A stretch of DNA of 64,000 nucleotides from assembly GCA_039714075.1 (NCBI GenBank), contig JBDLKA010000001.1, positions 1 to 64,000 on the forward strand, in the 5' to 3' direction. Below, piece after piece: positions 9,485 to 38,045 of the stretch. Within the stretch, counting starts at the first letter, position 1, and each line of letters begins with the position of its first letter. This DNA comes from Candidatus Krumholzibacteriota bacterium. GTDB taxonomy: Bacteria; Krumholzibacteriota; Krumholzibacteriia; LZORAL124-64-63. Below the pieces are notes generated by a model that did not search any database, was not told the origin of the DNA, and saw only the letters and a list, made by a program, of their open reading frames with translations. The position numbers and the translations under genes were made by a program.

Positions 9485-9500
9485 CGGCATGGGGCTTGCC
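9485..9500 (+). promoter_or_regulatory. sigma54 promoter candidate upstream of the flgL stub and fliW-csrA
   Basis: CGGCATGGGGCTTGCC (GG-N10-GC). Confidence 0.6.
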
Positions 9501-9527
9501 CAGCCGTGTTCAGGAAGTGGGACAGGT

Positions 9528-9620
9528 GTGCCTGCCGAAAGGGCTGAAGCCAGTAACCAGACCAGCTTGCTTGTGACAAGGAAGTTATTGGCCAACAACC
9601 TGATGCAGCGCCTACGTTAA
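9528..9620 (+). pseudogene. flgL: Remnant resembling the C-terminus of hook-filament junction protein FlgL
   Basis: AEASNQTSLLVTRKLLANNLMQRLR* resembles the FlgL end (E..YQASL.VT.KL...SLMD.LR*) and lies immediately before fliW, the usual flgL position. Confidence 0.5.
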
Positions 9621-9669
9621 CATGTCGGATGACCCTGGTTTGCCGGGGCCGGCCAGCAAGGAGCCAGAA

Positions 9670-10287
9670 ATGCCTAAGTTCCAGACCGTACGCTTCGGAG
9701 AACTCGCCTACCGCGAGGAAGACGTCATCCTCCTGCCCGAAGGGCTGGTCGGTATGCCGGATCTCCACAACTGGCTGATCCTCGAAATGGGCGACGATGT
9801 GCCCATGAAGTGGTTCCAGTCCCTGGACAGGGGCGATTTCGGATTTCCGGTAAGCCAACCCGCATTTTTCACGGACAGCTACGATATCCCCCTGCCTCCG
9901 GAGGTCCAGGACCAACTGCGGGGCCGGGAAGGGGAATGGCTGGCCGTCATGGTCATTACCACGGTTCACCCGGGCGGAATCCGGATCACCGGTAACCTTC
10001 TGGCTCCATTGGTGGTTAACGTTGACAGCCGCCGAGGGTTGCAAATGGTCCTGGAGGACCCCGACTTGAGCGTCGAACAGGAAATCAATTACTTGAAATT
10101 TGGGCTTGCCGTGGATGGCCAGTCAGCGGAGAATGAAACGGTAAGCGTTCGTGGCAAGGAATTTGGCCAAGCTGGTTCTCAAACTGGTTGCGAGGCTGGT
10201 TCGCAAGAAAAGCTTGATTCCTCGTCCGAAAGCGGTCAGTCTCAGGTCCGATCCGAGGTGGAAACGCCAGAACCTGTCGGGGTATAG
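9670..10287 (+). CDS. fliW: Flagellar assembly factor FliW with acidic C-terminal extension
   Basis: [26 protein letters not shown] and [11 protein letters not shown] motifs. AAGGAG RBS before ATG 9670. Confidence 0.9.
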
Positions 10288-10337
10288 CCCGCCCCGCAAG
10301 CCCAGGTGGCGTTCCGGAGACAGGACAGGGAGGTCCC

Positions 10338-10610
10338 GTGCTCATACTCAGCCGAAAACGCAACGAGAAAATCATGATCGGAGACGACATCTCCATCATG
10401 ATTGTCGACATACGTGGTGACCAGGTCCAGATCGGTATCGATGCCCCAAGGTCCATTCCCGTCCACCGCCACGAAATCTATGAGGAAATCAAGAGCACCA
10501 CGTTGAGTGCGGCCGAATCCCAGAAGGTCGATCTGGATGGGATTCGCAAAAAGATCAAGGATGACGGCGATAACGACCCCAAGAAGGGGAGAGGGGAAAG
10601 CGGTGCCTGA
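10338..10610 (+). CDS. csrA: Carbon storage regulator CsrA
   Basis: [17 protein letters not shown]...[23 protein letters not shown] start with GGAGG RBS. Confidence 0.95.
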
Positions 10611-10751
10611 TTTTCCCGTCAGGCTTTGCTATTGAAGCAGGCCAGGAGAGGTTCCCCGACCGCGGTCTGGCCTGCGTATTGAAGACATACCCAACCGCTC
10701 CCTGATTTCCAGCGCCAACATGGTTCCCCTGGGACAGGGCTTCACCCTGAA

Positions 10752-10767
10752 CGGCACCACAATTGCA
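10752..10767 (+). promoter_or_regulatory. sigma54 promoter candidate upstream of flgM
   Basis: CGGCACCACAATTGCA (GG-N10-GC). Confidence 0.6.
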
Positions 10768-10821
10768 CCTATGAAATACATCAGAAAGAACTATCCCACT
10801 GCCCTCAGAGGTAGGCTTGCC

Positions 10822-11184
10822 ATGGTCATGGACAGAATCAACGGATTTTCACAACTGAGCCTGGAGCTCCTGAATAATATCAGGAGGCCTGGTCCGGTGG
10901 ATTCCGGAGATGAATTACCTACCCAGTCCCGGGTACCACATGGCGACCACCGTGCCGCTCCGGCGGATAAAGCAGATATTTCTCCCAAGGCCCACCGGCT
11001 CATAGCTTTGCGAAACGATGTCGAATCCGGCCGGCAGGTCTTGGATTCCGTTCCCGAAGTGCGGCAGGACCGGGTGGCCGAAGCTCGCGCGCGCCTTGAT
11101 CGCGGGTTCTACAACTCCGTCGAAGTACGCACCAGGGTTGCCGAACGCCTGGATGACGTGGCCCAGAGCATGGAGGATATCTAA
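10822..11184 (+). CDS. flgM: Anti-sigma28 factor FlgM-like protein
   Basis: DKADISPKA...VPEVRQDRVAEARARLDRGFY pattern typical of FlgM. Start chosen downstream of the sigma54 site. Confidence 0.7.
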   Translation: MVMDRINGFSQLSLELLNNIRRPGPVDSGDELPTQSRVPHGDHRAAPADKADISPKAHRLIALRNDVESGRQVLDSVPEVRQDRVAEARARLDRGFYNSVEVRTRVAERLDDVAQSMEDI

Positions 11185-11343: not shown

Positions 11344-13632
11344 ATGATGGAAGATCACCTTTTCCGTCTCCCGCCACCCATTCCCCATGGGGCGGTTTTT
11401 GTCGGTCCGGCCCACTGGTTGAATTCCCAGCCTATTTCAGAGCGTGAATGCCGCCATTTTTCCCAGGCCAACAAGGCCCTGCCGTGGCTGAAACGGATGT
11501 TCGGAGAAAACAAATCCGACTCCCGGCTCGTTTTTCTGCACCAGGATGCCTTCGCCGGCGAAGATGGAGCCGACGAACTCGTCAACTGGCTGGAATCACT
11601 GACGGTGCTGCGCGCCCCTTATCTGCCCATCCTGCTGCATGGCGATCTTTCCGCAGGACAGTTGGTCCGCTTCTTCCGGGCGGGACTTTTTGACGCCCTG
11701 GTCGTGCCCCTGGATCGAGCCCAGTGGGTGAATATGCTGATCCGGGCGGAAAAACGCTTCGAAATCCGCAGCCAGGGCCGGCTGATCCTCGCGTCATCAG
11801 GCCGCACTCAGGATCTGCTGCACAATCTCCGCCGCAAACTTGGAGATCAGACCGCACGGTCGGCCAGCGAAATGCTGCGGGCCCAGGAATCCCTGGAGGC
11901 AGCCAACCGCCAGCTGAATGAAACCATGGCGGAGCTTTCGCTGCTGTACACCTTCGGACGCCAACTGAGCGCCGCCGGCAATTGGGACGAGGTTCTGCGG
12001 GAAATCCTGAAAAGTCTGGCCGGTTTCATCGGCGCACGCGGTTCCGCGCTCATCCTTCGTTCGGCGCCCGGGGGATCGTATTCCCCCCGGCAAACCTGGC
12101 ACTGGGATGAAACCGCCTGGGACAAGGTCATTGTCGAGCTCAAGGACAAGGTGGATGCCTCCGCCGACGGCGGTATTCTCGCGCCGGGCGTTTTCAAGAT
12201 AGAGGACCAGAGATCCGGGGGCACGGGCTCGGGCCGGCGGATCATCGCCCTTCCCTTGGAACACCAGGATGTTCGTCTCGGGTTTTTACTTCTGCTACTG
12301 GCGGACCCTGCGGAGCGCGACCGGGTCAGCCAAAGGTACGTATCCTTTTTGCAGGCGGTGCAGGTCATCCTGTCCGAAGAGGTGGCCAGCGCCCAGCTGC
12401 TGGACCGCATCCGCGACATCGGCGCCTTTAACGCACGGGTGCTGGAAACGGTCAGCAGCGCCATCTGGGTCACGGACGAAAACGGCCGCACGGTCTATTG
12501 CAACCGGTCGGGCCAGGAACTTTTGACTGGCCATGCGGCGCCCGCCATGGCTCCCGAGGATATCCTTTTCCAGATCGGGCGCGGGCGGGGCGATGGGCCC
12601 CTCGGGGGTGCCGAAGCCGATCTGCCTGAACTTTTTCTCGATGGCCGGCTCCGGCTCGATGATGCCCAGGGCATGCTGCTTCCCTTCCTGCACGGCCAAC
12701 CCAACAGTGTTTTCCGGGGGGAAGGACAGGTCATCCGATCCGATGGCACCGGCATCCCGGTCCTGCTGCAGACCTCCTGCATGCCCGGCAGCATTCCCGA
12801 CCAGACCTGGCTGGTGGTGGTGGCGGAGGACCTCCGCGAAACCCGCAAGCTGGAGGCCGAGAGGCTGCGCTCGGATCAGCTGGAAGGCCTGGTGGAAATG
12901 TCCGCCACGCTGGCCCATGAAATCCGCAATCCGCTGATGGGGCTCAGCGCCCAGGCTGAGCTGCTGGCCGACCAGCTTCCCGCGGACGACAAGCGCTCGC
13001 GCTACATCGACGTCATCACGTCCGAAGTGGACCGCATCAACGCCACGATCACCCGGATGTTGAATTTCGTCCGTCCCTACGAGCCGGACCTGTCGCCGAT
13101 TTTTATCGGGGAGCTTTGCCGCGACGCCTTGGCGCTGACCGAAGTCCGTGCCCGGGACAAAGCCGTCTCCATTGAATTCGCCGCCGATTCCATGTCCGCT
13201 GAGAATGCGGGCCTCGAAATCGAAGTCGATTCCGGGCAGATCAAACAGGTTCTGCTGAACCTCCTGATCAACGCCGTGGATGCCGCTCCCCCCAACGGCC
13301 GGGTCGTCTTGCGGGTGTTGCCCAGCGACAACCTGGAATTGAGTGACCCCACACGGGGGACCCGGCACGCGGGCCCCGGGGTCATCATAGAAGTCCTGGA
13401 TAACGGTCCGGGATTCAAGGATGGTGACCTGGCCAGGATATTTCGCCCCTTCTACACGACCAAAAGCTCGGGCACCGGGCTTGGGCTTGCCATTTGCCAC
13501 AAGATCGTGACCGCCCATGATGGACAGATCATGGCGGGCCGCGACCAGGACCAGACTTTTTTCCGTGTCCAACTGCCCCGCGTTGCGGAACAGCGGGGGG
13601 CAGGGCGCGGCCAACTGGAGGAGATGCAATGA
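11344..13632 (+). CDS. Multi-domain sensor histidine kinase (degenerate receiver, GAF-like, PAS, HisKA, HATPase)
   Basis: H-box AHEIRNPL, QVLLNLLINA, DNGPG, FYTTK, GTGLGL. Overlaps the next gene (ATGA). Confidence 0.85.
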   Translation: MMEDHLFRLPPPIPHGAVFVGPAHWLNSQPISERECRHFSQANKALPWLKRMFGENKSDSRLVFLHQDAFAGEDGADELVNWLESLTVLRAPYLPILLHGDLSAGQLVRFFRAGLFDALVVPLDRAQWVNMLIRAEKRFEIRSQGRLILASSGRTQDLLHNLRRKLGDQTARSASEMLRAQESLEAANRQLNETMAELSLLYTFGRQLSAAGNWDEVLREILKSLAGFIGARGSALILRSAPGGSYSPRQTWHWDETAWDKVIVELKDKVDASADGGILAPGVFKIEDQRSGGTGSGRRIIALPLEHQDVRLGFLLLLLADPAERDRVSQRYVSFLQAVQVILSEEVASAQLLDRIRDIGAFNARVLETVSSAIWVTDENGRTVYCNRSGQELLTGHAAPAMAPEDILFQIGRGRGDGPLGGAEADLPELFLDGRLRLDDAQGMLLPFLHGQPNSVFRGEGQVIRSDGTGIPVLLQTSCMPGSIPDQTWLVVVAEDLRETRKLEAERLRSDQLEGLVEMSATLAHEIRNPLMGLSAQAELLADQLPADDKRSRYIDVITSEVDRINATITRMLNFVRPYEPDLSPIFIGELCRDALALTEVRARDKAVSIEFAADSMSAENAGLEIEVDSGQIKQVLLNLLINAVDAAPPNGRVVLRVLPSDNLELSDPTRGTRHAGPGVIIEVLDNGPGFKDGDLARIFRPFYTTKSSGTGLGLAICHKIVTAHDGQIMAGRDQDQTFFRVQLPRVAEQRGAGRGQLEEMQ

Positions 13633-15089
13633 AATCCAGGATCCTGATCGTCGACGATGAAGCCGCCATCCGCTCTTCCCTTCAGGAGTCGCTTACGTCC
13701 GAGGGGTACGACACCGAGATCGCCGAATCGGGAGAGGAAGCCCTGGCCAAATGCCACGGCGCCGTGTTCGACCTGGTGGTGACCGATCTGCGCCTGCCCG
13801 GCGTCAGCGGTCTGGAAATCCTGCAGGCCCTGCGCAACCAGGGCCAGTCCACGCCGGTCATCATGATGACGGCCTACGGGGATGTGGACACCGCCGTCAG
13901 CGCCATGAGGCTGGGAGCGTATGATTTCATTCCCAAACCCTTCAAGCTGACCGCCATCAAGAAACAGGTGCGGGCCGCCCTGCGCGCCACGGTGGAGCCC
14001 CGGGTAGCGGTGGAGGACAGCCCGGCCGCTGTCGTCGATAAATCCCCGAACGGCGCCGCGCGGGGCCAAGACCCCGAGGGGCCGTACATGGGCATGATCC
14101 GGGCCTGTCCCGGTCTGGAGAAAGTGGCGGACATTCTGGAGAAGATCGGCGCCAGCCGCAGTGGAAACGACACGTCCATTCTCATCCAGGGTGAATCCGG
14201 GTCGGGCAAGGAGATCGTGGCGCGGGCGGTGCACGAGGTCAGCCTCGGTCATACGGACCGCTTCATGGAAATCAACTGCGCGGCCGTTCCGGAAACCCTT
14301 CTGGAAAGTGAATTGTTCGGCTACGAAAAGGGCGCCTTCACGGACGCCAAGGGGCGCAAGGAAGGCCTGTTCGAACTGGCCGGGGGCGGGACCATCTTTC
14401 TGGATGAGATCGGGGAAATGGGTGTGCTGCTCCAGAGCCGCCTGTTGCGGGTCCTGGAAAACCGCCGGTTTCGCCGGGTGGGGGGCAAGGACGATCTCAA
14501 CGTGGAAGCGCGCATCGTCGCGGCCACCAACCGTCGCCTGAGCGAAGCCATCGAGGACGGGTCCTTCCGGAACGATCTCTACTACCGTCTCCAGGTGGTG
14601 GAAATCGAAGTTCCGCCCCTGAGGGAGCGGCCCAAGGACCTGAAGATCCTGATCGACGCATTTTTGCGGGAATTCAACGCCAAGCTGGAACTGAACACCG
14701 AACCGGTGGACGACCGTCTGCTGGAGACGCTGCAAAAGTATCCCTGGCCCGGAAACGTCCGGGAACTGAAGAACATTTTGAAGAGAATCGTCATTCTTGA
14801 CCAGCCGGACAAACTTCTGGAAAGCCATTTCCCCGCCCACATCCTGCAGGGAATGAATCCCCGGAATTCCTCCCGTCAGCAGGTCCTTGGTCAGACCACG
14901 GGCTTGATGCCCTTGTCCGAGGTGGAAAAACTCCAGATTCTCTACACCCTGGAAATGACGGAGAACAACAAGTCGAAGGCGGCCCGCATCCTGGGAATCA
15001 GTCGGCAAACCCTGCGCGAGAAACTTCGAATCTACGAGCAGGGCGCGGCTGAAGAGGGGGATCTCAAATCCGACCTGGCCGAAGGCTGA
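13629..15089 (+). CDS. sigma54-dependent response regulator (NtrC family)
   Basis: Receiver, GESGSGKE, ESELFG, GAFTDA, WPGNVREL, Fis-type HTH. Confidence 0.9.
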   Translation: MKSRILIVDDEAAIRSSLQESLTSEGYDTEIAESGEEALAKCHGAVFDLVVTDLRLPGVSGLEILQALRNQGQSTPVIMMTAYGDVDTAVSAMRLGAYDFIPKPFKLTAIKKQVRAALRATVEPRVAVEDSPAAVVDKSPNGAARGQDPEGPYMGMIRACPGLEKVADILEKIGASRSGNDTSILIQGESGSGKEIVARAVHEVSLGHTDRFMEINCAAVPETLLESELFGYEKGAFTDAKGRKEGLFELAGGGTIFLDEIGEMGVLLQSRLLRVLENRRFRRVGGKDDLNVEARIVAATNRRLSEAIEDGSFRNDLYYRLQVVEIEVPPLRERPKDLKILIDAFLREFNAKLELNTEPVDDRLLETLQKYPWPGNVRELKNILKRIVILDQPDKLLESHFPAHILQGMNPRNSSRQQVLGQTTGLMPLSEVEKLQILYTLEMTENNKSKAARILGISRQTLREKLRIYEQGAAEEGDLKSDLAEG

Positions 15090-15427: not shown

Positions 15428-16204
15428 ATGAACCTGAAGTTTGAAATTTCATTCCGCACACTCGTTCCTGCCCTGGTGTTGGCGGGCCTTTTCGGCATGT
15501 GCCGGCTGGCATCAGCTGAGACGGTCATGGCAACGGATCATGATTCATTGGCCGACGCCTACCAGGATTGGATTTCGGCCCTGGAAGCCGCCGGCGGCTC
15601 GAATTCCCGCTGGGAATTTCCTTTTGAGGCTCCCAGGCCCGACAACCTGTCGGCCGGAGAGTTGGAAACGGTCCTTTCCCTGCGTCGCCTGGTCCGGGAT
15701 CAGGATACGGGGCCTCTGGAAACCCTTGTCGGGAACCTTACCGGACGGCCGCTGGAAATGCCGGTTCAGATGCGGTACTGGCTTGCCTACGCTCAAAGCG
15801 TTCTCAACCGCCAGGAAGCATGCTGGGACAATCTCCGCCTTCTATTGCTGATGCAGGATAGCGCCGACCATCTGGAACCAGGCCAGCGGGCCTGGGTCCT
15901 GACTGCGTTTGCCGACTACAGCTTTCTATTGGGGAGGCGTCTATTGGCCTCCCGGATGTACGGGCAGTTGGCGGTTTCGACCGTGGAGCAGTTGGAACTG
16001 TGGGGGCAATACCAGCTGGCGGGGATGGATTTTCTGGAACGGAACTTCAACGGCGCCAACCGGAGGTACAAGGTGGTTTGCGAGTCGGATAAATCCGGGA
16101 CCTGGCGGGAACACGCCTGCGCCATGGCGGAAATGGCCGCACGACTGGACAGCCTGGACCTGGAAGGGGGATCCCATGGCCATGTCGCCCTCGTCTCTCC
16201 CTGA
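15428..16204 (+). CDS. Hypothetical exported protein, TPR-like helical repeats
   Basis: Signal-peptide-like N-terminus. YWLAYAQ, FADYSFLLG and YQLAGMDF helical repeat-like segments. Confidence 0.55.
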   Translation: MNLKFEISFRTLVPALVLAGLFGMCRLASAETVMATDHDSLADAYQDWISALEAAGGSNSRWEFPFEAPRPDNLSAGELETVLSLRRLVRDQDTGPLETLVGNLTGRPLEMPVQMRYWLAYAQSVLNRQEACWDNLRLLLLMQDSADHLEPGQRAWVLTAFADYSFLLGRRLLASRMYGQLAVSTVEQLELWGQYQLAGMDFLERNFNGANRRYKVVCESDKSGTWREHACAMAEMAARLDSLDLEGGSHGHVALVSP

Positions 16205-16571
16205 ATCCACGGTCACCGAAGAGAGCCTTCTGGACCGGTTGCTGTCCCTGTATGAAGAAGAGCGGGAATTGTATTCCCAGGTGCTGCAACTGTCCCGCGA
16301 ACAGGGGGAGGCCGTCAGGCAGGGTGGATCGATGGCTTCCGTACGCCGGATCCTCGAACAGAAAAAAGGGTGTCTGGACCTGATCGGCCGCCTGGAACTG
16401 ACCGAGCACAGGACCAAGGTGGCCTGGGAAAAAGGCCGCCACGGGTGGTCCGCGCCGGGTCGGCGGAAACTTCATGATGCCGTCCAGGAAGTCGCCTGCC
16501 TGATCGAGGATATTCTGGTAGCCGAAGAGAAGAACGATCTCCTGCTCATTGAACAGACGAGGGTGGTTTGA
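16176..16571 (+). CDS. FlgN/FliT-like export chaperone
   Basis: About 130 aa, helical: LLSLYEEERELYSQVLQLSREQ...ILEQKKGCL...EEKNDLLL. GGGGG RBS. Confidence 0.55.
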   Translation: MAMSPSSLPESTVTEESLLDRLLSLYEEERELYSQVLQLSREQGEAVRQGGSMASVRRILEQKKGCLDLIGRLELTEHRTKVAWEKGRHGWSAPGRRKLHDAVQEVACLIEDILVAEEKNDLLLIEQTRVV

Positions 16572-17287
16572 TGACAGCCACATTGATTCCGAACGCAGAG
16601 AAAACCGTCTCCCGGACGACCGAAACGGGTGAGCGCCAGGACCGCCGTCTGCTGGTCGGCTATCTGCACAAGACCAGCAATACCCTGTGTGGAATCAAGG
16701 GATACGCAAGCCTCATCGCCGACCGGGAAGCCGGCGCCGGGCAGGCGGGCCGCTGGGCCCGCAAGATCATCGCCGAGGTAGAGAGGATGGAGGAGATATT
16801 CCGTTCCGTTGGTGACCTGACGCGGGGCCGCCAAAACCCCGATGTCGGCGTGGACCTGCCGGGGCTGGTCCACGATGTGGCCAAGGAAATCGCCCGCAAT
16901 GGATGGGGACTCGACCTGCAGGTCGGCGACATACCTGCCGGAGAGCTGAAGCTGCCGGTAGCGGATCTCGTGCTCATGCTGTCGGAAATCCTCAACAACT
17001 GCGCGGAAAGTCGTGCCTCCGATTCAGACCGGGTGTCGGCCGCGATCCACGGCGAACGCGACCGCGATGGCAGGGTTTTCCTGAAGGTGAAGGATGATGG
17101 TTGCGGCATGGATGATGGACTTCTGGCGCAAGCAACAAGTCCTTTCGTGACCAACAAGGAGGGCCACCACGGAGTGGGGCTGACCCGGGTGGACACGTTG
17201 ATGGAGATGTACGGACTGGCCTGGACCCTGGAAAGCCAGGCAGGACGGGGAACCAATATCAGACTTGAGGTCGCCGAAGGTTATTGA
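16571..17287 (+). CDS. Sensor-less histidine kinase (FleS/FlrB position)
   Basis: Atypical H-box LHKTSNTL, EILNNCAES, DDGCG, PFVTNK, GVGL. No input domain. TGATG coupling to the previous gene. Confidence 0.7.
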   Translation: MTATLIPNAEKTVSRTTETGERQDRRLLVGYLHKTSNTLCGIKGYASLIADREAGAGQAGRWARKIIAEVERMEEIFRSVGDLTRGRQNPDVGVDLPGLVHDVAKEIARNGWGLDLQVGDIPAGELKLPVADLVLMLSEILNNCAESRASDSDRVSAAIHGERDRDGRVFLKVKDDGCGMDDGLLAQATSPFVTNKEGHHGVGLTRVDTLMEMYGLAWTLESQAGRGTNIRLEVAEGY

Positions 17288-17303
17288 GGTGGACGAAAGG
17301 GAC

Positions 17304-19289: not shown

Positions 19290-19322
19290 GTGCCTCCGGA
19301 ACCCAGAATTTGAGGTAGTGCA

Positions 19323-28656: not shown

Positions 28657-28660
28657 ACGA

Positions 28661-29574: not shown

Positions 29575-29590
29575 TGGCATGCCCATTGCC
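29575..29590 (+). promoter_or_regulatory. sigma54 promoter candidate upstream of fliP
   Basis: TGGCATGCCCATTGCC (GG-N10-GC) after an AT-rich gap. Confidence 0.6.
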
Positions 29591-29627
29591 TTACCCTGAT
29601 TGGGAACATCCGGCGCCCCCGTGGGGC

Positions 29628-30491: not shown

Positions 30492-30509
30492 GGGAAAAGG
30501 AATTCAGTC

Positions 30510-30773
30510 ATGACACCTGAAACGGTTATCGAAATCGGACAATACGCCATGAAGACGGCGATATTCGTGGCCGGGCCGATGCTGGTCGCCGGCATGATCG
30601 TGGGCCTGGCCATCAGTATCTTCCAGGCCGCCACGCAGATCAACGAGATGACCATGACTTTCGTACCCAAGATCCTGACGGTGTTCCTGGTCCTGATCCT
30701 GACCCTGCCCTGGGCCATCAACCAGATGACGGGGTTCACCGTGGCCATGTTCAACCGCATCGCCGGAATGTAG
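30510..30773 (+). CDS. fliQ: Export gate FliQ
   Basis: FQAATQINEMTMTFVPK. Confidence 0.97.
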   Translation: MTPETVIEIGQYAMKTAIFVAGPMLVAGMIVGLAISIFQAATQINEMTMTFVPKILTVFLVLILTLPWAINQMTGFTVAMFNRIAGM

Positions 30774-30781
30774 GCGGACCG

Positions 30782-31564
30782 GTGCGGTTCGAACTGGACA
30801 TAACTCTTCTGGCGGTAACCGCGGCCCTGGCTGTCCGCTTCGGCGTTCTGGCGGCCACCCTTCCCCTGCTGGACAGGAGAAGCGTCCCGCCTCTGTGGAG
30901 GGTTGTCCTGGCCGTCGGTTTTGCCGCCGCCCTGGCGCCCGGCATCTCCCGCGCCCTGCCGCCGGGAATGGCATCCTTGGCCTGGCCCGATCTGGTGATG
31001 GAAGCGGTGCGCTCGCTGGTGGTGGGGGCGCTTTTGGGGTTCACCATCAACCTGGTCTTCACGGCCGTCCGTTACGCGGGCTCCATTGCAGGCATGCAGA
31101 TCGGATTCGCCATCGTCAACTCCTACGATCCCATGAGCAACTCCCAGGTTTCCGTGATTTCCCAGCTCTACTACCTGTTGGCCGTCCTGCTCTTTTTCGT
31201 CACCGGCGCGCATCAGATTCTCGTGGCGGCCATGTACCAGTCATGCCTGGCAGTGCCGCCCTTCACTCCGGGGGATCCGGTCGGCGGTGCCTGGTTCCTG
31301 ATGCGTGAATTCGGCACCGTATTCTCTCTCGGACTGCAGATCGCCGCGCCCATCGTGATCGTCCTTCTCCTGGTCAGCGCTTCGATGGGGGTCATCGTGA
31401 AAACCGTGCCCCAGCTCAATGTCCTGGTGGTGGGGTTTCCCATCAAGATCGGGGTGGGGCTCATCACCCTGGGGCTTTCGCTGGTGTTCTTCCGGGAAAT
31501 CACCACTTCGGTGATGGCGGGTATGCAGGGCCGGCTGGCTGATCTGCTGCTGGCCATGAAATAG
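30782..31564 (+). CDS. fliR: Export gate FliR
   Basis: Multi-TM. AG...GMQIGF...YDP and PQLNVLVVGFPIKI motifs. Confidence 0.93.
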   Translation: MRFELDITLLAVTAALAVRFGVLAATLPLLDRRSVPPLWRVVLAVGFAAALAPGISRALPPGMASLAWPDLVMEAVRSLVVGALLGFTINLVFTAVRYAGSIAGMQIGFAIVNSYDPMSNSQVSVISQLYYLLAVLLFFVTGAHQILVAAMYQSCLAVPPFTPGDPVGGAWFLMREFGTVFSLGLQIAAPIVIVLLLVSASMGVIVKTVPQLNVLVVGFPIKIGVGLITLGLSLVFFREITTSVMAGMQGRLADLLLAMK

Positions 31565-31580
31565 TACGGGGAGGTGAATC

Positions 31581-32642
31581 ATGGCCGATGAAACAGGCGC
31601 CGAAAGAACAGAAAAAGCGACAGTCAAGCGCAGGGAACAGGCACGCGAACGCGGGCAGGTGGCACGCAGCACGGAAGTCACCAGCGCCGTTCTGCTGTTT
31701 GCCGGCGTCCTGGTCCTCGTGGGCGGCAGCGGGCATTTCTCTTCGGTCCTCGGCCGGAACACTTTCTATCTCTTGTCGCAAGCACACATCCTGGGTCCGG
31801 ACAACCAGTTCGCCTTGCAGGAACTGGTGCGGGGCAACCTCGAAATTCTCTTGTCGGCGTTGGCTCCCCTGCTGCTGGTCGTTCTGCTGGCGGCCGTGGG
31901 CGCCAACGTGATGCAGGTCGGCTTCCACGCCAGCACCAAGGCCATTGCCTTCAAGACCGAAAAGCTGAATCCCGTCACCGGAATGAAACGCTTCTTCCAG
32001 AAGACGACCTACTTCGACATGGTCAAACACTTCCTCAAGATCCTGGTCATCGGGCTCCTGGCCTGGGTCACGATCCAGGGCCTGCTGGAGCATCTGGTGG
32101 GGGCGGCGGTCCTGCCGCTACCGGCCATCGTGGATATGGCCCGGACCGATTTTGTGCACCTGATGGTAAAACTCCTTCTCTTCATGGCCATCCTTGCCGT
32201 CATCGACTGGTTTTGGCAAAAGAACCGGCATGAGGAAAACCTCAAAATGACCCGGCAGGAAGTGAAGCGGGAAAACAGGGACATCGAAGGGGATCCCCAG
32301 ATCAAGGCCCGTGTCCGGGGCCTCCAGTACGAGATGGCCCGCAAGCGAATGCTGGCCGATGTGCCCACCGCGGACGTCGTGGTGACCAATCCGACCCATT
32401 TCGCGGTGGCCTTGAAATACGCCCCCGGCTCGTCGGCTCCCCAGGTGGTTGCCAAGGGTCAGGACCATGTGGCACAGATGATCAAAAAAGTGGCCCGCCA
32501 GTCACGCGTTCCCGTCATGGAAAACAAGCCTTTGGCCCGCGCATTGCACAAGGAAGTCGAAGTGGGGGCCGGAATTCCCGAAAGCCTGTACCAGGCCTTG
32601 GCCGAAGTGCTGGCCTACGTGTACCACCGGAAAAGGTCCTGA
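31581..32642 (+). CDS. flhB: Export switch protein FlhB
   Basis: ERTEKAT, EGDPQIK, NPTH autocleavage motif, VAKG, LARAL. Confidence 0.96.
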   Translation: MADETGAERTEKATVKRREQARERGQVARSTEVTSAVLLFAGVLVLVGGSGHFSSVLGRNTFYLLSQAHILGPDNQFALQELVRGNLEILLSALAPLLLVVLLAAVGANVMQVGFHASTKAIAFKTEKLNPVTGMKRFFQKTTYFDMVKHFLKILVIGLLAWVTIQGLLEHLVGAAVLPLPAIVDMARTDFVHLMVKLLLFMAILAVIDWFWQKNRHEENLKMTRQEVKRENRDIEGDPQIKARVRGLQYEMARKRMLADVPTADVVVTNPTHFAVALKYAPGSSAPQVVAKGQDHVAQMIKKVARQSRVPVMENKPLARALHKEVEVGAGIPESLYQALAEVLAYVYHRKRS

Positions 32643-32672
32643 CCCGGGCCGTCGGACAAGGGAGACTGAAGC

Positions 32673-34790
32673 TTGCAGCAGGATCAAGTCATCAACAGGG
32701 ATCTCGTGCTGGCCAACAGCAACGTGCTGAGCGCCGGCGCGGTTTTGGTCATTCTGGGCCTGTTGGTGGTTCCGGTGCCGCCGATCCTGTTGGATCTGAT
32801 GCTGACCTTCAGCATCGCTTTTTCGGTGACGGTCCTGCTGGTGTCCCTCTACATCAAGCAGCCCCTTCAATTCAACAGCTTCCCTTCCCTGCTTCTGATT
32901 CTCACCCTGATGCGCCTGTCCCTGAACGTGGCTTCCACCCGCCTGATCCTCAGCAAGGGTTCGGCGGGCCAGGTCATCCAGAGTTTCGGCGATTTTGTCG
33001 TGGGGGGGAACTACGTCATCGGGGTGATCGTCTTCATCATCCTGGTGGTCATCAACTTCATGGTCATCACCAAGGGGTCCGGGCGCATCGCCGAAGTGGC
33101 CGCCCGCTTCACCCTCGACGCCATGCCCGGCAAGCAGATGGCCATCGACGCCGACCTCAACGCCGGCCTGATCAATGAAGCGCAGGCCAGGGCCAGGCGT
33201 CAGGAAATTTCCCAGGAAGCTGAATTTTTCGGGGCCATGGACGGGGCCAGCAAATTCGTCAAGGGCGACGCCGTCGCCGGCATCATCATCACCGTCATCA
33301 ATATCGCCGCGGGCTTTGTCGTCGGCATGATCCAGATGGGGATGTCCGGTAGCGAAGCCCTGAGCCGTTTCACGATCCTGACGGTGGGCGACGGCCTGGT
33401 GTGCCAGATCCCCGCCCTGTTGGTCTCCACCAGCGCCGGCCTGGTGGTGACCCGTTCCAGCGGCAGCCACAATCTCGGGCAGGCGGTCACCCTGCAGATC
33501 TTCCGGCAACGCAAGGCCCTGTTCCTTTCCGCGGGGGCCATGATGGTTCTCGCCCTGGTGCCGGGGTTGCCGACCGGCCCCTTCATGTTCCTGTCCGTGG
33601 CCACGGCTTTGACCGGGTTCATCCTGGGCCGCAAGGTGGCCAGCTACGATGAAGACAAGGCCCGCAGCCTGGAAATCGACCGGATGGCGGAAGTGCAGCC
33701 CGAAGAGGAATCCGACGGGATACGTTCGGAAGACCTGTTTGTACTGGATCGCCTGGAACTGGAGATCGGGTACGGGTTGATCCCACTGGTCGATGACTCG
33801 CGCGGAGGGGATCTGCTGGCCCGGGTGGGCAACATCAGGCGTCAGGTGGGTAAGGAACTGGGGATTTTCGTTCATCCCATCCGCGTCCGGGACAACCTCC
33901 AGCTTGGCGCCCAGCAATACGTCATCCGGCTGAAGGGCGTGGAAATCGCCCGGGCCGAACTGATGCCCGATAAACTGCTGGCCATGAACACCAGGCCGGA
34001 CACGGGAGAGATCGAGGGCACCTCCACCACCGAACCCGCCTTTGGCCTGCCCGCGGTTTGGATCGACCGGGATAACAAACAAGCCGCCGAACGCGAGGGC
34101 TTCACCGTGGTCGAACCACCTGCGGTTCTGGCCACCCATCTGTCGGAATTGATCCGCATCCACGCCGATGAGCTCTTGAGCCGCCAAGACGTCAAGGACA
34201 TGTGCGAATCCATCAGGGAATTCGCGCCCTCCCTGGTGGAAGACCTGATCCCCGACAAGGTGCCGGTCAACACGCTGCACAATGTTCTGCGGGCCCTGCT
34301 GCATGAACGTGTTCCCGTGCGGGACATAATTTCCATTCTGGAAACCCTGGCCGACCACGGGGGCGGCAACCTGGCCACGGATTACCTGGTGGTCAAGGTG
34401 CGCGAGGCGCTGGGCCGTTCCATCACCGCCCTGTACGCGGAAAACGGTGGCCGCCTGCACGTCGTTTCCCTGCATCCGGAAACGGAGCAGGTGTTCCTGC
34501 AGGCCAGCCGCAATTCGGAGCAGGCGGGTGGCGTGGTGCTTGATCCCGGTTTCACCCAGGAATTCCTGACCCGCACCGAAGCCGTTCTTCGTGCGGCCTC
34601 CGCCAACGGGCCACAGCCGGTCCTGCTGGTGCCCACACCCATCCGCCTCTTCGTGAAAAGTCTCGTCGAACCGACCTTTCCCAATCTGGCCGTCATGGGC
34701 TACACCGAAGTTTCCGATTCGGTGACCATCCAGTCGGCAGGAACGGTGGTGGCCAATGGAATTCCCCAGGAACAACACGCAGCCGGCTGA
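32673..34790 (+). CDS. flhA: Export gate FlhA (TTG start)
   Basis: RIAEVAARFTLDAMPGKQMAIDADL, FFGAMDGASKFVKGDA, GDGLV, LEIGYGL motifs. Confidence 0.97.
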   Translation: MQQDQVINRDLVLANSNVLSAGAVLVILGLLVVPVPPILLDLMLTFSIAFSVTVLLVSLYIKQPLQFNSFPSLLLILTLMRLSLNVASTRLILSKGSAGQVIQSFGDFVVGGNYVIGVIVFIILVVINFMVITKGSGRIAEVAARFTLDAMPGKQMAIDADLNAGLINEAQARARRQEISQEAEFFGAMDGASKFVKGDAVAGIIITVINIAAGFVVGMIQMGMSGSEALSRFTILTVGDGLVCQIPALLVSTSAGLVVTRSSGSHNLGQAVTLQIFRQRKALFLSAGAMMVLALVPGLPTGPFMFLSVATALTGFILGRKVASYDEDKARSLEIDRMAEVQPEEESDGIRSEDLFVLDRLELEIGYGLIPLVDDSRGGDLLARVGNIRRQVGKELGIFVHPIRVRDNLQLGAQQYVIRLKGVEIARAELMPDKLLAMNTRPDTGEIEGTSTTEPAFGLPAVWIDRDNKQAAEREGFTVVEPPAVLATHLSELIRIHADELLSRQDVKDMCESIREFAPSLVEDLIPDKVPVNTLHNVLRALLHERVPVRDIISILETLADHGGGNLATDYLVVKVREALGRSITALYAENGGRLHVVSLHPETEQVFLQASRNSEQAGGVVLDPGFTQEFLTRTEAVLRAASANGPQPVLLVPTPIRLFVKSLVEPTFPNLAVMGYTEVSDSVTIQSAGTVVANGIPQEQHAAG

Positions 34791-35901
34791 CGGACGGACG
34801 TCCGTCGTGACCGGGCCCACCCTCAGCGAAACCTTCAAGCTGGTTCGTCAGGAATTTGGCCCGGACGCAGTGATCGCTGGGTCACGAACCAATACGCGCC
34901 GCAAAAGCAACGGGTGGGGGACCGAGCAGGTTGTCGAAGTCCTGGTCCAGAACCCGGGAGCCTTCCCGGTGGTAGCCGAGGGAGACCGCGACCCGGAAGA
35001 AAACCTGACCGGTGACATCCGCCGCGAAGTGGAACGTCTGGAAAAAATGGTGGAAGAAATATGCAAAGGGGACGCGCTTGCCGATGCCCCTGAAAAGATT
35101 CAACCGGCGAATCCGTTGGGCGAATACCTGGAGCAGAACGGGGCTTCCCCGGGCGCGGTCACCAGGCTTTTGAACCGGTTCGCAGGTGAGACGGGTTCGT
35201 CCGTGGACGACAGGCCGGCCGCCATTCGCTGGTTGGCGTCCCGGCTGGATACCGTCCCCGGGGACCTGACTGCCCCTGCGGGCATCCACGCCTTCCTGAC
35301 GGAACACGCCGGTGACAGGTTGGACCTCGTTCTTCATCTGGCCCGGCGGATGACGGACCTGGGTCGCCGTGTCCTGGTGCTCTCCATCCTGCCTGATCCG
35401 GAAACACAGTTGCCCAGGTTGCGTGCCGTGGCCGCCGCATCCGGCCACGATGCCGCGGTTGTGCAGGACCTCGACCAACTGGCGGACCTTCAACAACAGC
35501 TCGACGGATATGATCTGATCCTCATGGATTTGCCGGCCCTGGCAGATCCGGCCCTGGGCGAAGGAACCCCCCTCCACAAGTGGTTGGCGGCCGATGTCCA
35601 GGTCCAACGTCATCTGCAGGTGCCCATGGACCGCGATTTCCTGGATCTGGCCGACCTGCGGGAAGCGGCGCGCCTCTGGAATTGCGACTCGCTGGCCCTG
35701 GCCCGGCTGGATGGGACCCGCCGACCCGCCAAGCTCCTGGATCTGATCGACACCATTCCTCTTCCGGTTTCGCTGCTGGCGGACAGCGCCACGGGGAGCG
35801 GCTACCTGGAGGCGGCCACCCCGGATTTGCTGTTGGACAGGATCCTGGCCCTGAAATCAGGTCCCAACTTCAAACCGGGTCTGGAAATTGAAAGCGCCTG
35901 A
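34756..35901 (+). CDS. flhF: FlhF-derived protein with degenerate GTPase motifs
   Basis: FlhF B-domain start (VRQEFGPDAVI...VVEV) directly after flhA. The G-domain layout is recognisable, but P-loop, DTAG and TKLD are replaced. Confidence 0.65.
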   Translation: MEFPRNNTQPADGRTSVVTGPTLSETFKLVRQEFGPDAVIAGSRTNTRRKSNGWGTEQVVEVLVQNPGAFPVVAEGDRDPEENLTGDIRREVERLEKMVEEICKGDALADAPEKIQPANPLGEYLEQNGASPGAVTRLLNRFAGETGSSVDDRPAAIRWLASRLDTVPGDLTAPAGIHAFLTEHAGDRLDLVLHLARRMTDLGRRVLVLSILPDPETQLPRLRAVAAASGHDAAVVQDLDQLADLQQQLDGYDLILMDLPALADPALGEGTPLHKWLAADVQVQRHLQVPMDRDFLDLADLREAARLWNCDSLALARLDGTRRPAKLLDLIDTIPLPVSLLADSATGSGYLEAATPDLLLDRILALKSGPNFKPGLEIESA

Positions 35902-35924
35902 AGGGCGAAAGGAAATCAGACGGT

Positions 35925-36158
35925 ATGCAGAAGTTCATCCACAACGTCGCCCTGCTGGCCAGTTTCGTGGTCCTGTCCTGCGGGCTTTGGCAGGACTGGG
36001 GAGCGTGGCTCACCGTCAAGCGGATGTTCGTTTCCTACATGGGGTTTTTCATCTGCGGATCGGGCCTTTTTCTGGCCTTCAGGGCCGTTCTCCGGTTCGA
36101 GTCCGGACCCCGGGACGCAAAGAGTGACAAGTCCGTCGGCCGGGTCGCAAAAGGTTGA
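35925..36158 (+). CDS. Small two-TM hypothetical protein
   Basis: Two hydrophobic segments, AAAGGA RBS, located in the operon before fliA. Confidence 0.6.
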   Translation: MQKFIHNVALLASFVVLSCGLWQDWGAWLTVKRMFVSYMGFFICGSGLFLAFRAVLRFESGPRDAKSDKSVGRVAKG

Positions 36159-36185
36159 CGGCACCCGTACGCGCAGGGCGGCTGA

Positions 36186-36201
36186 TGGCATGGAAAGTGC
36201 A
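36186..36201 (+). promoter_or_regulatory. sigma54 promoter candidate upstream of fliA
   Basis: TGGCATGGAAAGTGCA (GG-N10-GC), followed by the palindrome TGCAAC-AGG-GTTGCA. Confidence 0.5.
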
Positions 36202-36239
36202 AATGCAACAGGGTTGCACCTCACCAGAAAGGTTGGCTA

Positions 36240-37190
36240 ATGATCGACACAGTCCAGATCGCGCACCAGGATCTCTGGGAACAGACCGAAGGCAGACACA
36301 GCCAGGAAGCCCGCCGGGACCTGGTCAATATCTATGCCCGCATCGTTAAATACGTGGCCGGAAGAATGGCCATCGGGCTGCCTCACTACGTTGAATTCAA
36401 CGACCTGATTTCCGCCGGTCTTCTGGGGCTGATCCAGGCGATCGATAATTTCGACCACGAGCGGGGGATAAAGTTCGAAACCTATGCCATTCCCCGCATC
36501 CGGGGCTCCATTCTGGATGAACTGCGCAGCCAGGACTGGTTCCCGCGCTCGCTGCGGCGCAAGGCAAAGCAACTGGAAGAAGCCTACTCCACTCTGGAAG
36601 TCCAGCTTGGCCGTCCCGCCACCGACGCGGAAGTCGCCAAAAAGCTCAGTATAAAAATCGAGGAGCTGGACAGCATGGTGGGCGAGGTCTCCATCGCCAC
36701 GATCATGTCCCTGGACGCCGACACCTCCGGCGACGACAACGAGAATTCCACCAGCCTGGGGGACTATCTGGCCGACGTGAACAACGAAGACGTCGAACAG
36801 ATCCTGGCCCGGCAGGAGATGAAGGAACTGATCGGGACGCGCATGGCGGAACTTCCCGAAAAGGAACAGCTGGTCCTGGTCCTGTACTACTACGAGGAAT
36901 TGACCCTCAAGGAAATCGGGGAAATCCTCGACGTCACCGAAAGCCGGGTCTGCCAGATCCACACCAAGGCAATTCTGAGGCTGAAGGGCAAGATCGAACG
37001 GCACGAGGGCAAGAGCTCCATCGGCCAGATAACGCAGCAGATCCAGCGTCAGCAGCAGCCTCAGGAGGGTACTGCCAAGGCAGGCACCGACAAGGCAGGC
37101 ACCCTGGTGGAAAAAACCCTGAAGACCCTGGAGCCGGTGAACGTCATGGCCTGTGTGACCCTGTTTCACCTTTGCACATTCCTGACCTGA
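36240..37190 (+). CDS. fliA: RNA polymerase sigma28 FliA/WhiG with ~60 aa C-terminal extension
   Basis: DLISAGLLGL, KFETYA..RIRGSILDELRSQDWFPRS, YYYEELTLKEIG, ESRVCQIH motifs. Confidence 0.95.
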   Translation: MIDTVQIAHQDLWEQTEGRHSQEARRDLVNIYARIVKYVAGRMAIGLPHYVEFNDLISAGLLGLIQAIDNFDHERGIKFETYAIPRIRGSILDELRSQDWFPRSLRRKAKQLEEAYSTLEVQLGRPATDAEVAKKLSIKIEELDSMVGEVSIATIMSLDADTSGDDNENSTSLGDYLADVNNEDVEQILARQEMKELIGTRMAELPEKEQLVLVLYYYEELTLKEIGEILDVTESRVCQIHTKAILRLKGKIERHEGKSSIGQITQQIQRQQQPQEGTAKAGTDKAGTLVEKTLKTLEPVNVMACVTLFHLCTFLT

Positions 37191-37262
37191 ATGGCGAAAA
37201 CTGGGGGGGGTGACCGGGGCCGCAGCCTGACCATTCGTATCTGTAGATGACGAGGAGCGAAC

Positions 37263-37637
37263 ATGCCCGGTGATGGAGTTTCCCTGCCGACCACCCTGGC
37301 CCAGATGGGCAACGTGGCCAGGACCCAGGCCCGGGGACAGCAGGCCTCGCCCCAGGTGACGCCCTTCTCCGAGCAGAAGGACGACAAGAACGAGTTGAAG
37401 ATCCAAGGGGTCAAGGAAACCACCGAAGCCGAACAAAGCCGGGTCATTGCCGATCAGGAGGAAAACGACAAACGGAAACGTCGCCGCCTGAAACGCCGGC
37501 GGAAAAGGATCACCAGGTCAGGGAATGATCAGCAGGCAAGTCGGGAAAAGGACTTGAACAATGACCAGGACGACTCGACGCGGACCAGCGTCGAAGAGGA
37601 AGAGGATCTGGGCAGCCTGATCGACATGAGGGTTTGA
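37263..37637 (+). CDS. Hypothetical low-complexity flagellar-operon protein
   Basis: GAGGAG RBS. Gln-rich and charged, ends in LGSLIDMRV (G..ID-type tail seen in small ORFs after fliA). Confidence 0.6.
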   Translation: MPGDGVSLPTTLAQMGNVARTQARGQQASPQVTPFSEQKDDKNELKIQGVKETTEAEQSRVIADQEENDKRKRRRLKRRRKRITRSGNDQQASREKDLNNDQDDSTRTSVEEEEDLGSLIDMRV

Positions 37638-37655
37638 TTTCCCAGGAGGGAAACC

Positions 37656-38045
37656 GTGGATTTCACCGCCATTTGGGAAAGTATCGCAGGCCAGGAGCCC
37701 GTGTTCCTGGCGGCCACAGGATCTGTGGCCCTCGGGATCACCCTCATTCTGATGGCTGGAATCGTCCCGCTGAAGCGGGTCCGGACATGGGCCCGTCCTG
37801 AGGCCCCTGCGGAAGAGCCCCGAACGCTACCCACGGCTGTCGTTGCACCGGAACACCATCAATCACGGACCGAACCCGCCCGGAACCCTGAATTGCGGCA
37901 TCTTATGACCAGATTGAGGGCCGCGGCGGACAAACTGGAACATTCAACGGCCGCAAATGCCGATTATCCCGATAACCCCGCCGATTCCCCACTAAAGAAG
38001 GTTCCCTCCGGAGTCGAATATATCTTCAGAGCCGGAACGGGATGA
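37656..38045 (+). CDS. Hypothetical membrane-anchored protein
   Basis: AGGAGG RBS with GTG start, N-terminal TM. Confidence 0.55.
   Translation: MDFTAIWESIAGQEPVFLAATGSVALGITLILMAGIVPLKRVRTWARPEAPAEEPRTLPTAVVAPEHHQSRTEPARNPELRHLMTRLRAAADKLEHSTAANADYPDNPADSPLKKVPSGVEYIFRAGTG
37992..38020 (+). promoter_or_regulatory. sigma28-type promoter candidate upstream of the HDOD genes
   Basis: CTAAA-N16-GTCGAATA resembles TAAA-N15/16-GCCGATAA. Confidence 0.4.

Follow-up and report, generated by a model that had tools for sequence, protein, structure and literature searches.

The stretch of DNA described here, hereafter the window, covers 64 kb at the start of a 185 kb contig (JBDLKA010000001.1) of assembly GCA_039714075.1 (G000), a metagenome-assembled genome (MAG) of 4.06 Mb in 260 contigs from an uncultured Candidatus Krumholzibacteriota bacterium, and it carries a flagellar gene cluster in which the motor and the export machinery are retained and the genes for rod, hook, rings and filament are missing. 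The sequencing runs that carry the sequence are marine metagenomes, and the closest named records are MAGs labelled Candidatus Krumholzibacteriia, with FliI identities of 71-83%. A Pfam scan of the 36 plus-strand open reading frames (ORFs) between 9.6 and 39.9 kb, five of which have no family at E≤0.01 (60 window ORFs were scanned in all), delineates one long co-directional cluster. It starts with fliW, csrA, flgM, a histidine kinase with a sigma-54 response regulator, a FlgN-like ORF, a second kinase/regulator pair and an 86-aa ORF, continues with fliE, F, G, H, I, J, a gene for an MgtE_N-like protein, flbD, motA, motB, fliL, fliM and fliN, and ends with a fliO-sized ORF, fliP, Q, R, flhB, flhA, a 381-aa ORF, fliA, two small ORFs and two HDOD genes; the remainder of the window consists of ordinary genes. 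The export core is present, with Pfam matches for FHIPEP (FlhA, 2.3e-259), Bac_export_2 (FlhB, 6.7e-117), FliP (1.2e-79), Bac_export_3 (FliQ) and Bac_export_1 (FliR), as are the MS ring and C ring (FliF, FliG, FliM and FliN, full length against orthologues) and the stator (MotA_ExbB, MotB_plug and OmpA). An earlier note, made from the letters alone, had listed these flagellar ORFs as uninterrupted, and Pfam recovers them all, FlgM weakly, except for FliO (29065-29415), which has no Pfam match and is recognized by its position and by 81% identity to the orthologue of the nearest congener. Every retained gene is uninterrupted and matches its orthologues from end to end, without a stop or frameshift in about 19 kb, at 63-97% identity to the flagellar orthologues of a congener. 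The alignment further shows intact functional motifs: the NPTH site of FlhB, the plug and Asp of MotB, the cytoplasmic motifs of MotA and the torque helix of FliG.

Among the same 60 ORFs no rod, hook, ring, junction, cap, filament, flhG or che gene is found by Pfam, as the earlier note had read, and its proposal to look for axial genes elsewhere was followed through the whole assembly, which is 92% complete, with none found. None of the six profiles Flg_bb_rod, Flg_bbr_C, Flagellin_N, FlgI, FliD_N and FlgH had a match in six-frame searches of the 4.06 Mb, and each of them matched in 3 or 4 of 14 control genomes. The relatives used for comparison are the nearest congener (G001), two further congeners (G003 and G006), G007 and a member of the same family with one contiguous cluster (G012). 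With 28 proteins of G012 as tblastn queries against the assembly, all seven positive controls matched the window, and 19 of the 21 queries for the deleted classes had no match at E≤1e-3; of the remaining two, flgJ matched only an unrelated SLT domain (56141-56497) and flgB matched its scar. By this search flgC, flgF, flgG, flgE, flgD and fliK are not found in the assembly, nor are fliC, fliD, flgK and flgL, apart from a scar of the flgL tail. FliW and CsrA are present and constrained, and their third partner, flagellin, is not found in the whole assembly. This gene content establishes that, from the genes in the assembly, the cell would be unable to build a flagellum.

The manner of the loss can be read from the relatives. 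By blastn against G006:C5, G003:C3 and G012:C92, the window is collinear with their single flagellar supercluster except at four gaps, which bears out the claim of deletion in situ and not relocation, and the short scars that had been noticed at the flgBC, fliK-flgDE and flgKL positions are all in place (Table 1). The four gaps correspond to five deletion events, as gap 3 comprises two in-frame events. According to Pfam annotation of the relatives, gap 1, between a hybrid kinase and fliW, has lost flgF, G, A, H, I, J, flgN, flgK and flgL (9.1 kb); gap 2, between csrA and flgM, has lost fliS, fliD, flaG, one to three minus-strand flagellins and a GNAT gene (a stretch of 5.1 kb in G003 and of 8.1 kb in G012); gap 3, which separates the second response regulator from fliE, has lost 57 codons of flgB and nearly all of flgC (0.17 + 0.5 kb); and gap 4, between the MgtE_N-like gene and flbD, has lost fliK, flgD and flgE (3.7-4.2 kb). 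Junction 1 lies at 9540-9543 with an AGG microhomology and joins the old flgF upstream region to the flgL tail, which ends 1 nt ahead of fliW; seven of seven congeners carry about 9 kb at this gap and realign at the same window positions. Junction 2 is located within 10611-10770. Junction 3a (18754/18755) is an in-frame 57-codon deletion within flgB, and junction 3b (18912/18913) fuses the FlgB C-terminus in frame to the last 9 codons of flgC, the resulting 86-aa ORF being composed of FlgB(1-24), the C-terminal ~53 aa of FlgB and the last 9 aa of FlgC and ending at the old flgC end, 44 nt before fliE. At junction 4 (near 25045-25052) the overlap between the stop of the MgtE_N-like gene and the start of fliK has survived, and the ribosome-binding site of flbD, AAGGAG (25056-25061), is preserved. 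No repeats flank the junctions. Since the deletions end at gene borders or in frame, the downstream operons stay readable, and the anatomy of the junctions implies that each deletion leaves the next retained gene its own translation signals.

Only two DNA runs, X1 and X2, representing two samples of a single study, contain the stretch, with no RNA run among those listed; X1, possibly the source sample, has 0.95 of the sampled words. An assembly artefact at the junctions had been named as a way in which the whole observation could fail, and junctions 1, 3 and 4 are reproduced in other assemblies: contigs of X1 from the separate Logan assembly span junctions 3 and 4, where depth is even at ~17x, and an X2 contig bridges junction 1, 28 of the 45 X2 pieces being 95-99% identical to the window. 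For junction 2 there is no bridging piece among the rows listed, and depth there is continuous. Two local differences were seen in these runs. The X1 contigs depart from the window at 8851 and 9130 and skip 8874-9107 (232 nt), possibly because a relative co-occurs in the sample; in the X2 strain, 89 nt (9344-9434) of the leftover flgF upstream region have diverged, which may reflect fast change of a disused promoter.

Selection on the retained genes was assessed in codon alignments covering 4476 codons of 18 retained flagellar genes and 6689 codons of 12 control genes in their neighbourhood, taken from G000, G001, G006, G007 and G012, with the ratio (omega) of nonsynonymous (dN) to synonymous (dS) divergence calculated by Nei-Gojobori and with G006 as outgroup for branch values; the concatenates exclude fliW, csrA, flgM, fliO, fliP and flhA, each of which is without one of the five taxa. 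The first response regulator of G001 was a paralogue match and was dropped, and the alignments of the second regulator of G001 and of fliJ, flbD, fliL and SLT are flawed (high-scoring segment pairs running through stops, or misaligned) and contributed few columns to the counts. As a measure independent of dS, we counted unique changes, i.e., residues invariant in the other four taxa and altered in one taxon only. Between G000 and G001, dN is 0.119 in the retained flagellar genes and 0.109 in controls, and dS is 0.83 and 0.86, respectively. On the G000 terminal branch, dN is 0.049 (95% bootstrap 0.044-0.055) in retained genes and 0.052 in controls, with omega at 0.137 (0.114-0.167) and 0.157 (0.131-0.192), far from the value near 1 that the earlier note had given as the mark of plain decay. 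On the G001 terminal branch the corresponding dN values are 0.070 and 0.056, and omega is 0.149 for flagellar genes and 0.106 for controls. In flagellar genes, unique changes amount to 48/2235 (2.1%) for G000 and 71/2258 (3.1%) for G001; in controls they amount to 45/3287 (1.4%) and 65/3307 (2.0%), respectively. Branch dN and unique-change counts thus agree that the retained genes of G000 are not accelerated in comparison with the flagellated sister. Among single proteins, FliE (5/59), FliG (8/235) and the MgtE_N-like protein (5/70) have the most G000-specific changes and MotA has 1/173; FliW (13/138 in G000 vs. 18/143 in G003 and 29/154 in G007), CsrA (1/64) and FlgM (7/52) have changed no faster than in relatives.

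The scars, in contrast, have decayed. In them 14 of 67 otherwise invariant residues (21%) are altered, ~10x the level of the retained genes (Fisher P 7.6e-10), with 8/48 in the FlgB remnant and 6/19 in the FlgL tail. At the same FlgB positions the relatives show 1/41 (G001, five-taxon set), 0/40 (G003) and 2/42 (G007, six-taxon set), and in the FlgL tail 0/13 in both G003 and G007; for the FlgB remnant, branch dN reaches 0.098 in G000 and 0.031 in G001. The retained sequence beside the junctions (FliE N-terminus, FlbD, C-terminus of the MgtE_N-like protein) is without excess change, which makes mutagenesis associated with the junctions unlikely. The tenfold decay of the scars, together with the presence of junction 1 in a second strain, indicates that the loss is not fresh and that the rest of the cluster has remained constrained. 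As a rough estimate from few sites, constraint on the axial genes may have ended at a point between one fifth and one third of a terminal branch of dS ~0.35, counted back from its tip, and by our own arithmetic neutral evolution of ~19 kb over that span would yield hundreds of replacements and many stops. After the loss, purifying selection has continued to act on the remaining genes.

A second reduced lineage has been found in the same family. A 1.3 kb metagenome contig (L134:1-1292) holds the end of fliG, the MgtE_N-like gene, flbD and the start of motA, with no fliHIJ and no fliK-flgD-flgE, and a search with it within the family led to G013, a genome of another genus that is 98% complete in 20 contigs. 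The locus (G013:C16:138001-172000; L198, L199) carries a hybrid kinase, fliW, csrA, a kinase, a regulator, a FlgN-like gene, a kinase and a regulator, followed by a scrap of fliE, a shortened fliF, fliG, the MgtE_N-like gene, flbD, motA, motB, fliL, fliM, fliN, the FlhF-like gene, fliA and HDOD. It is without the same axial blocks, lost at different junctions, and additionally without fliH, I, J, O, P, Q, R, flhB, flhA and most of fliE; genome-wide, G013 has no match to FHIPEP, Flg_bbr_C, Flagellin_N or FliP. Its FliF (L198:11903-13192) keeps a segment resembling the first transmembrane helix, RBM3, the second transmembrane helix and the FliG-binding tail and has lost RBM1-2, the part of FliF that surrounds the export gate, and a 75-aa ORF ahead of it (L198:11880-12107) retains only the last ~30 residues of FliE. 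The MotB Asp, the charged loop of MotA and the torque helix of FliG are kept. At residues invariant in G000, G006 and G012, unique changes of G013 number 376/1327 (28.3%) in flagellar proteins and 390/1560 (25.0%) in controls; the remaining genes evolve at housekeeping-like rates over a branch of genus-level length. A small tree (FliG C-terminus and MgtE_N-like protein) places L134 and G013 together, on the same side of a split supported at 0.79, and their identity of 65% in the FliG C-terminus and 42% in the MgtE_N-like protein suggests that the reduced arrangement is old in that lineage. Since the junctions of G013 differ and it belongs to another genus, the losses in G000 and G013 are independent events.

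Reductions of these kinds are rare in the phylum. In a set of 41 relatives FlhA was found in 31 and rod-type C-termini in 30, G000 being the difference, and among 208 genomes of the phylum FHIPEP was found in 123 and Flg_bbr_C in 122, the tallies per family being identical apart from G000, the sole genome of the 208 with FlhA but no rod genes. FliG_C is present in 121 of the 208, and G013 is, among the matches listed, the only genome with FliG and without FHIPEP. All 7 congeners have the full axial set, with 3-6 Flg_bbr_C matches each; the rod-bearing relatives listed mostly have ~5, which fits one set (FlgC, E, F, G, K), and a few have 6-8. Metagenome contigs gave 0 exact matches to a degenerate pattern of the FlgB'-FlgC' junction peptide. 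In a metagenome scan anchored on FlbD, with 80 loci kept, FlgE lies ≤224 bp upstream of flbD in 67; of the other 13, seven have too little upstream DNA, four (L177, L189, L193, L195) have neither gene upstream, one has FlgE 1.8 kb upstream, and one, L134, has the MgtE_N-like gene immediately upstream of flbD. The junction of G000 has no second copy among these 80 loci. In L177 (784-1008), a contig from a low-GC organism that is not related, flbD lies immediately between an aminoacyl-tRNA-synthetase-like gene upstream and a putative fliL-like ORF downstream, with flgE and motA not adjacent.

Table 1. Coordinates in the window of the retained genes, scars and junction region of the reduced flagellar locus.
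Feature	Position	Strand	Basis and remarks
Hybrid histidine kinase/receiver	7721..9226	+	Pfam; borders the first deletion on its left, where the ancestral flgF block began; flgF is next in G012, G003 and G007
Leftover intergenic DNA formerly upstream of flgF	9227..9542	+	G001 aligns to 9542
flgL tail scar, ~25-26 codons + stop	9543..9620	+	Aligned to FlgL C-termini of G003, G007 and G012
fliW, intact	9622..10287	+	Pfam FliW 1.3e-26
csrA, intact	10338..10610	+	Pfam CsrA 3e-25
Junction 2 region	10611..10770	.	Site of fliS, fliD, flaG, flagellins and GNAT in relatives
flgM (anti-sigma-28)	10771..11184	+	Pfam FlgM E 1.8e-4, under the curated cut-off; orthologous to FlgM of G003/G006; likely start ATG 10771
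Histidine kinase (11344-13632) and sigma-54 response regulator (13629-15089)	11344..15089	+	Pfam; conserved in relatives and G013
FlgN-like ORF (start probably near 16180), short histidine kinase (16568-17287), sigma-54 response regulator (17265-18677)	15909..18677	+	Pfam
FlgB/FlgC scar ORF, 86 aa	18682..18942	+	Alignment
fliE, fliF, fliG, fliH, fliI, fliJ, intact	18987..24385	+	Pfam, full-length orthologue matches
MgtE_N-like membrane protein ('MotE-like')	24494..25015	+	Pfam MgtE_N 5.6e-5, slightly under the curated cut-off; in all relatives, G013 and L134
fliK scar, first ~12 codons, into the old flgE-flbD spacer	25015..25065	+	Deleted genes annotated in G012
flbD, motA, motB, fliL, intact	25071..27585	+	Pfam
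fliM, fliN, fliO-like, fliP, fliQ, fliR, flhB, flhA, intact	27604..34790	+	Pfam, full-length orthologue matches
Putative divergent FlhF-like protein, 381 aa, at the flhF position	34756..35901	+	No Pfam match; profile search
fliA (sigma-28), intact	36240..37190	+	Pfam sigma-70 r2/r3/r4; 0/217 G000-unique changes
Two small conserved ORFs, 124 and 129 aa	37263..38045	+	No significant Pfam match; in congeners; not found in G013

Some features of the locus and its relatives need further comment. The 381-aa protein has conserved counterparts throughout the family, G013 included; when six orthologues were combined into a profile, its best match was the FlhF chain 8r9r_A (E 0.009) with the P-loop column not conserved, and the product may be an FlhF-like protein that possibly does not bind GTP. 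The FlgN-like gene of the window is a second flgN paralogue, distinct from the flgN deleted along with flgK, and the 5' part of its ORF contains stops in relatives. About 1.1 kb separates the first response regulator from the FlgN-like gene (window 15090-16571), including an ORF (15368-16204) without a Pfam match and poorly conserved in congeners; in G013 the same interval measures only ~300 bp. In the congener G003, fliG (G003:C3:2671-2991) has one in-frame TAG within the FliG_C match, which is due either to an error of sequencing or to disruption of fliG in a cluster that is complete in other respects. Elsewhere, FlhA is split across frames or interrupted by TGA stops at G140:C3:1336821-1338729, G195:C11:4435-6379, G171:C2:543944-545906 and G139:C15:236835-238810; some of these genomes are in very few contigs, and the cause could be long-read indel errors or real pseudogenes. 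As for chemotaxis, one isolated CheW gene occurs in every one of the 8 genomes of the genus and in G000 adjoins an HDOD gene (G000:C71:10355-10780; L117:6308-6814), and neither MCPsignal nor a CheA dimerisation domain is found in G000, the only genome in which these two were sought. The lone CheW in all 8 genomes makes the lack of che genes look like a trait of the genus and not part of the axial loss; flagellated congeners may swim without the classical chemotaxis pathway.

Taken together, these data give the following picture. The ancestor had a single flagellar supercluster of ~48 kb, as in present relatives, from which five separate deletions removed the rod (flgC, F, G and the middle of flgB) and the hook (flgE, flgD, fliK), as well as the P/L rings with their helpers (flgI, H, A, J), the hook-filament junction (flgK, L, N) and the cap and filament (fliD, fliS, flaG, flagellins). 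Left behind are FliE, FliF, FliG/M/N, FliOPQR, FlhAB, FliHIJ, MotAB, FliL, FlbD and the MgtE_N-like and FlhF-like proteins, along with FliA/FlgM, FliW/CsrA and two sigma-54 two-component pairs as regulators. From these parts the cell would assemble a shaft-less basal body in its inner membrane, with the selected activity probably residing in the proton-driven rotor-stator/C-ring module, since this module is what G000 and G013 have in common, with a torque interface that both have conserved; export is less likely to be the core function in view of G013, which has rotor and stator without an export apparatus. The persistence of the export gate in G000 may have come about because full-length FliF and a kinase checkpoint, an idea taken from polar flagellates, may need it, or it may still export FliE and FlgM. 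On balance we lean towards the reading that a rod-less basal body is kept for a non-motility function centred on rotor and stator. A broader version, which we put forward only tentatively and consider doubtful in its full extent, is that Krumholzibacteriia possess a free-standing, shaft-less rotary module, made of an S/MS ring, a C ring, MotAB, FliL, FlbD and the MgtE_N-like protein under sigma-54/sigma-28 control, which may have arisen at least twice from a working flagellum (with the gate in G000, without it and with FliF trimmed to RBM3 in G013/L134) and in which the flow of ions through the stator would act on an unloaded rotor for signalling, for polar organisation or for driving a partner.

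One alternative is that the cell is still flagellated, replacement axial genes, duplicated or horizontally acquired, being located on unassembled or unbinned DNA and the native copies having been lost as redundant. It would account without new biology for the constraint on the stators, FliL, FliW/CsrA, FlgM/FliA and the NPTH site of FlhB, and with a completeness of only 92.2%, a contamination of 4.3% and 260 contigs, a relocated or foreign axial island on unbinned DNA is conceivable. We regard it as quite unlikely, however, given that six Pfam families and 21 orthologue queries gave no axial genes in 4.06 Mb, that relatives with rods mostly show one Flg_bbr_C set, that ~20 genes would all need to sit together on the missing DNA, and that the nearly complete G013 shows the same rotor/stator constraint with no flagellin, FliP, FlhA or rod matches; moreover, we know of no description of a chimeric flagellum that combines a native motor with a foreign axis. 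The idea that the deletions are themselves artefacts, i.e., collapsed or chimeric contigs from assembly or binning, could draw on the metagenomic origin of the assembly and on the window beginning at a contig end, but the bridging contigs of X1 and X2 and the scars, which carry substitutions of their own, with two junctions in frame and no flanking repeats, make it extremely improbable.

The earlier note had left the choice between a repurposed machine, such as a periplasm-directed type III exporter, an ion-driven rotor or a mechanosensor, and an intermediate stage of flagellar loss. Of these, repurposing is now favoured, with support from the independent case of G013/L134, and plain recent decay is disfavoured, as the scars have decayed and the retained genes have not. 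Ordinary loss caught midway, with retained genes that are functionless and have had too little time to decay and with G013 as a later stage, gains some plausibility from the frequency of complete loss in the phylum (85 of 208 genomes without FHIPEP), from G000 being a singleton and from G013, which shows that further genes can go. It nevertheless appears unlikely when set against the tenfold excess of lineage-specific replacements in the scars, a G000 branch omega equal to that of controls and sister, the absence of any stop or frameshift from the retained genes, the sharing of junction 1 with the X2 strain and the housekeeping-like evolution of what remains in G013. The five deletions, furthermore, strike genes of the axial class only; under uniform placement the chance of falling wholly within axial blocks is 0.023 for 8.1 kb, 0.40 for 0.55 kb and 0.18 for 4.2 kb, and the joint result of this test (0 in 200000) is a design artefact and was not used, because the 9.07 kb deletion is longer than its block even with the tolerance of ±150 bp added. 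Alternatively, the locus may serve mainly as a flagellar type III exporter to the periplasm (for FliE, FlgM and perhaps new substrates), or it may act as a checkpoint of assembly with the two sigma-54 two-component systems and FliA/FlgM as its recipients, rotor and stator being secondary. The export gate, ATPase complex and NPTH site of FlhB are intact and constrained and FlgM and FliA are kept, and, as far as the available text of the respective sources goes, a two-component system senses the MS ring/export apparatus in Campylobacter-type polar flagellates (PMC7064773) and the basal bodies of Buchnera are thought to serve as exporters (PMC8109811). Yet this explanation leaves the equal constraint on MotA, MotB, FliL, FlbD and the FliG torque helix unaccounted for, all known late substrates and their chaperones are deleted, and G013 has discarded the whole export apparatus and kept rotor and stator; an exporter or checkpoint as the main function is therefore, in our view, improbable.

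The preferred reading of a basal body kept for its rotor and stator has to contend with several further points. FliW as a flagellin partner, FlgM as a late export substrate, FliL and the stators are all most easily explained by an existing filament, to which it can be replied that G013 keeps FliW, CsrA, FliL and the stators with flagellin likewise not found. To our knowledge, no function of a free rotor-stator has been established anywhere. G000 is a single species representative, and there is no clade of such genomes among the 208. In quantitative terms, dS is close to saturation for the deeper pairs, and the clock provided by the scars comprises only 67 residues, which lie near junctions. 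Finally, a sigma-28 promoter motif (TAAAG-N13-16-GCCGA[AT]A) derived from the flagellin upstream regions of G012 and G006 has 3 matches in the G000 genome, about the chance level by a rough estimate without a control, and 0 in the window even when relaxed, and gave no inferable regulon.

Reduced flagella have usually been read either as decay or as motor-less export machines, as in Buchnera and the injectisome lineage. Here the pattern is reversed, in that the parts that generate torque appear to have been retained by selection in two independent lineages and everything that torque would turn is gone. If this is true, the locus offers a natural system for studying what the flagellar rotor and stator can do without a shaft, and one for a minimal self-assembling ring, on which the FliF of G013, without RBM1-2 and without an export gate, bears directly. 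The dated, natural in-frame deletion scars provide material on how operons can be pruned without polar effects. In addition, a caution is warranted for the annotation of MAGs, as the presence of FlhA, FliG or MotAB should not be taken to imply motility or a type III exporter.

In the flagellum of Buchnera, rod, hook and rings persist, and stators and filament have disappeared. As far as the available text of the source goes, this reduced flagellum of Buchnera aphidicola retains the MS/C ring and the type III export machinery and is non-motile (PMC8109811), and the likeness to G000 consists in a non-motile remnant with MS/C ring and export machinery. The partition is otherwise opposite, as G000 is without rod, hook, FlgI, FlgH and filament but retains stators, FliL and FlbD; moreover, Buchnera is an obligate endosymbiont with a tiny genome, whereas G000 has a ~4 Mb genome from a marine metagenome. 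In Lysobacter enzymogenes and other non-flagellated Lysobacter, many flagellar genes have been kept and new roles have been proposed for them, fliC, fliD, flgK, flgL and flgB as well as fliE, fliG, fliM, motA and motB being lost according to the available text (PMC9927559). On that account the first five are lost in both systems and the second five are intact in G000, and the rotor and stator genes lost in Lysobacter (fliG, fliM, motA, motB) are precisely the set kept in G000 and G013. Injectisomes possess a secretin, a needle and translocators and have neither stators nor a torque ring of the FliG type. Such non-flagellar type III secretion systems derive from the flagellar export core and, in the available text of the source, are without flagellar rod, hook and filament proteins (PMC3459982). 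G000 differs from them in keeping MotAB and in having genes orthologous to the flagellar genes of its congeners; secretin and needle families are absent from the 60 window ORFs scanned by Pfam, no genome-wide secretin search having been made. The contrast that the earlier note had drawn with Buchnera and the injectisomes can be considered fair; the partial sets of Lysobacter and the survey work on such sets did not figure in it. In a survey of flagellar gene sets, as far as its available text goes, 4% of genomes carry intermediate sets, scored by presence or absence only, with no locus-level case featuring in situ scars, selection tests or a rotor-stator-only module, and in the literature searched we have found no locus-level description of a rod-less, stator-retaining flagellar remnant under selection. 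A further counterpart is G013, which has in common with G000 the syntenic locus, the regulators, the axial losses and the rotor-stator core and differs in having lost the export apparatus as well. The system of G000 belongs to none of the named types and can be described as a reduced, possibly repurposed flagellar system.

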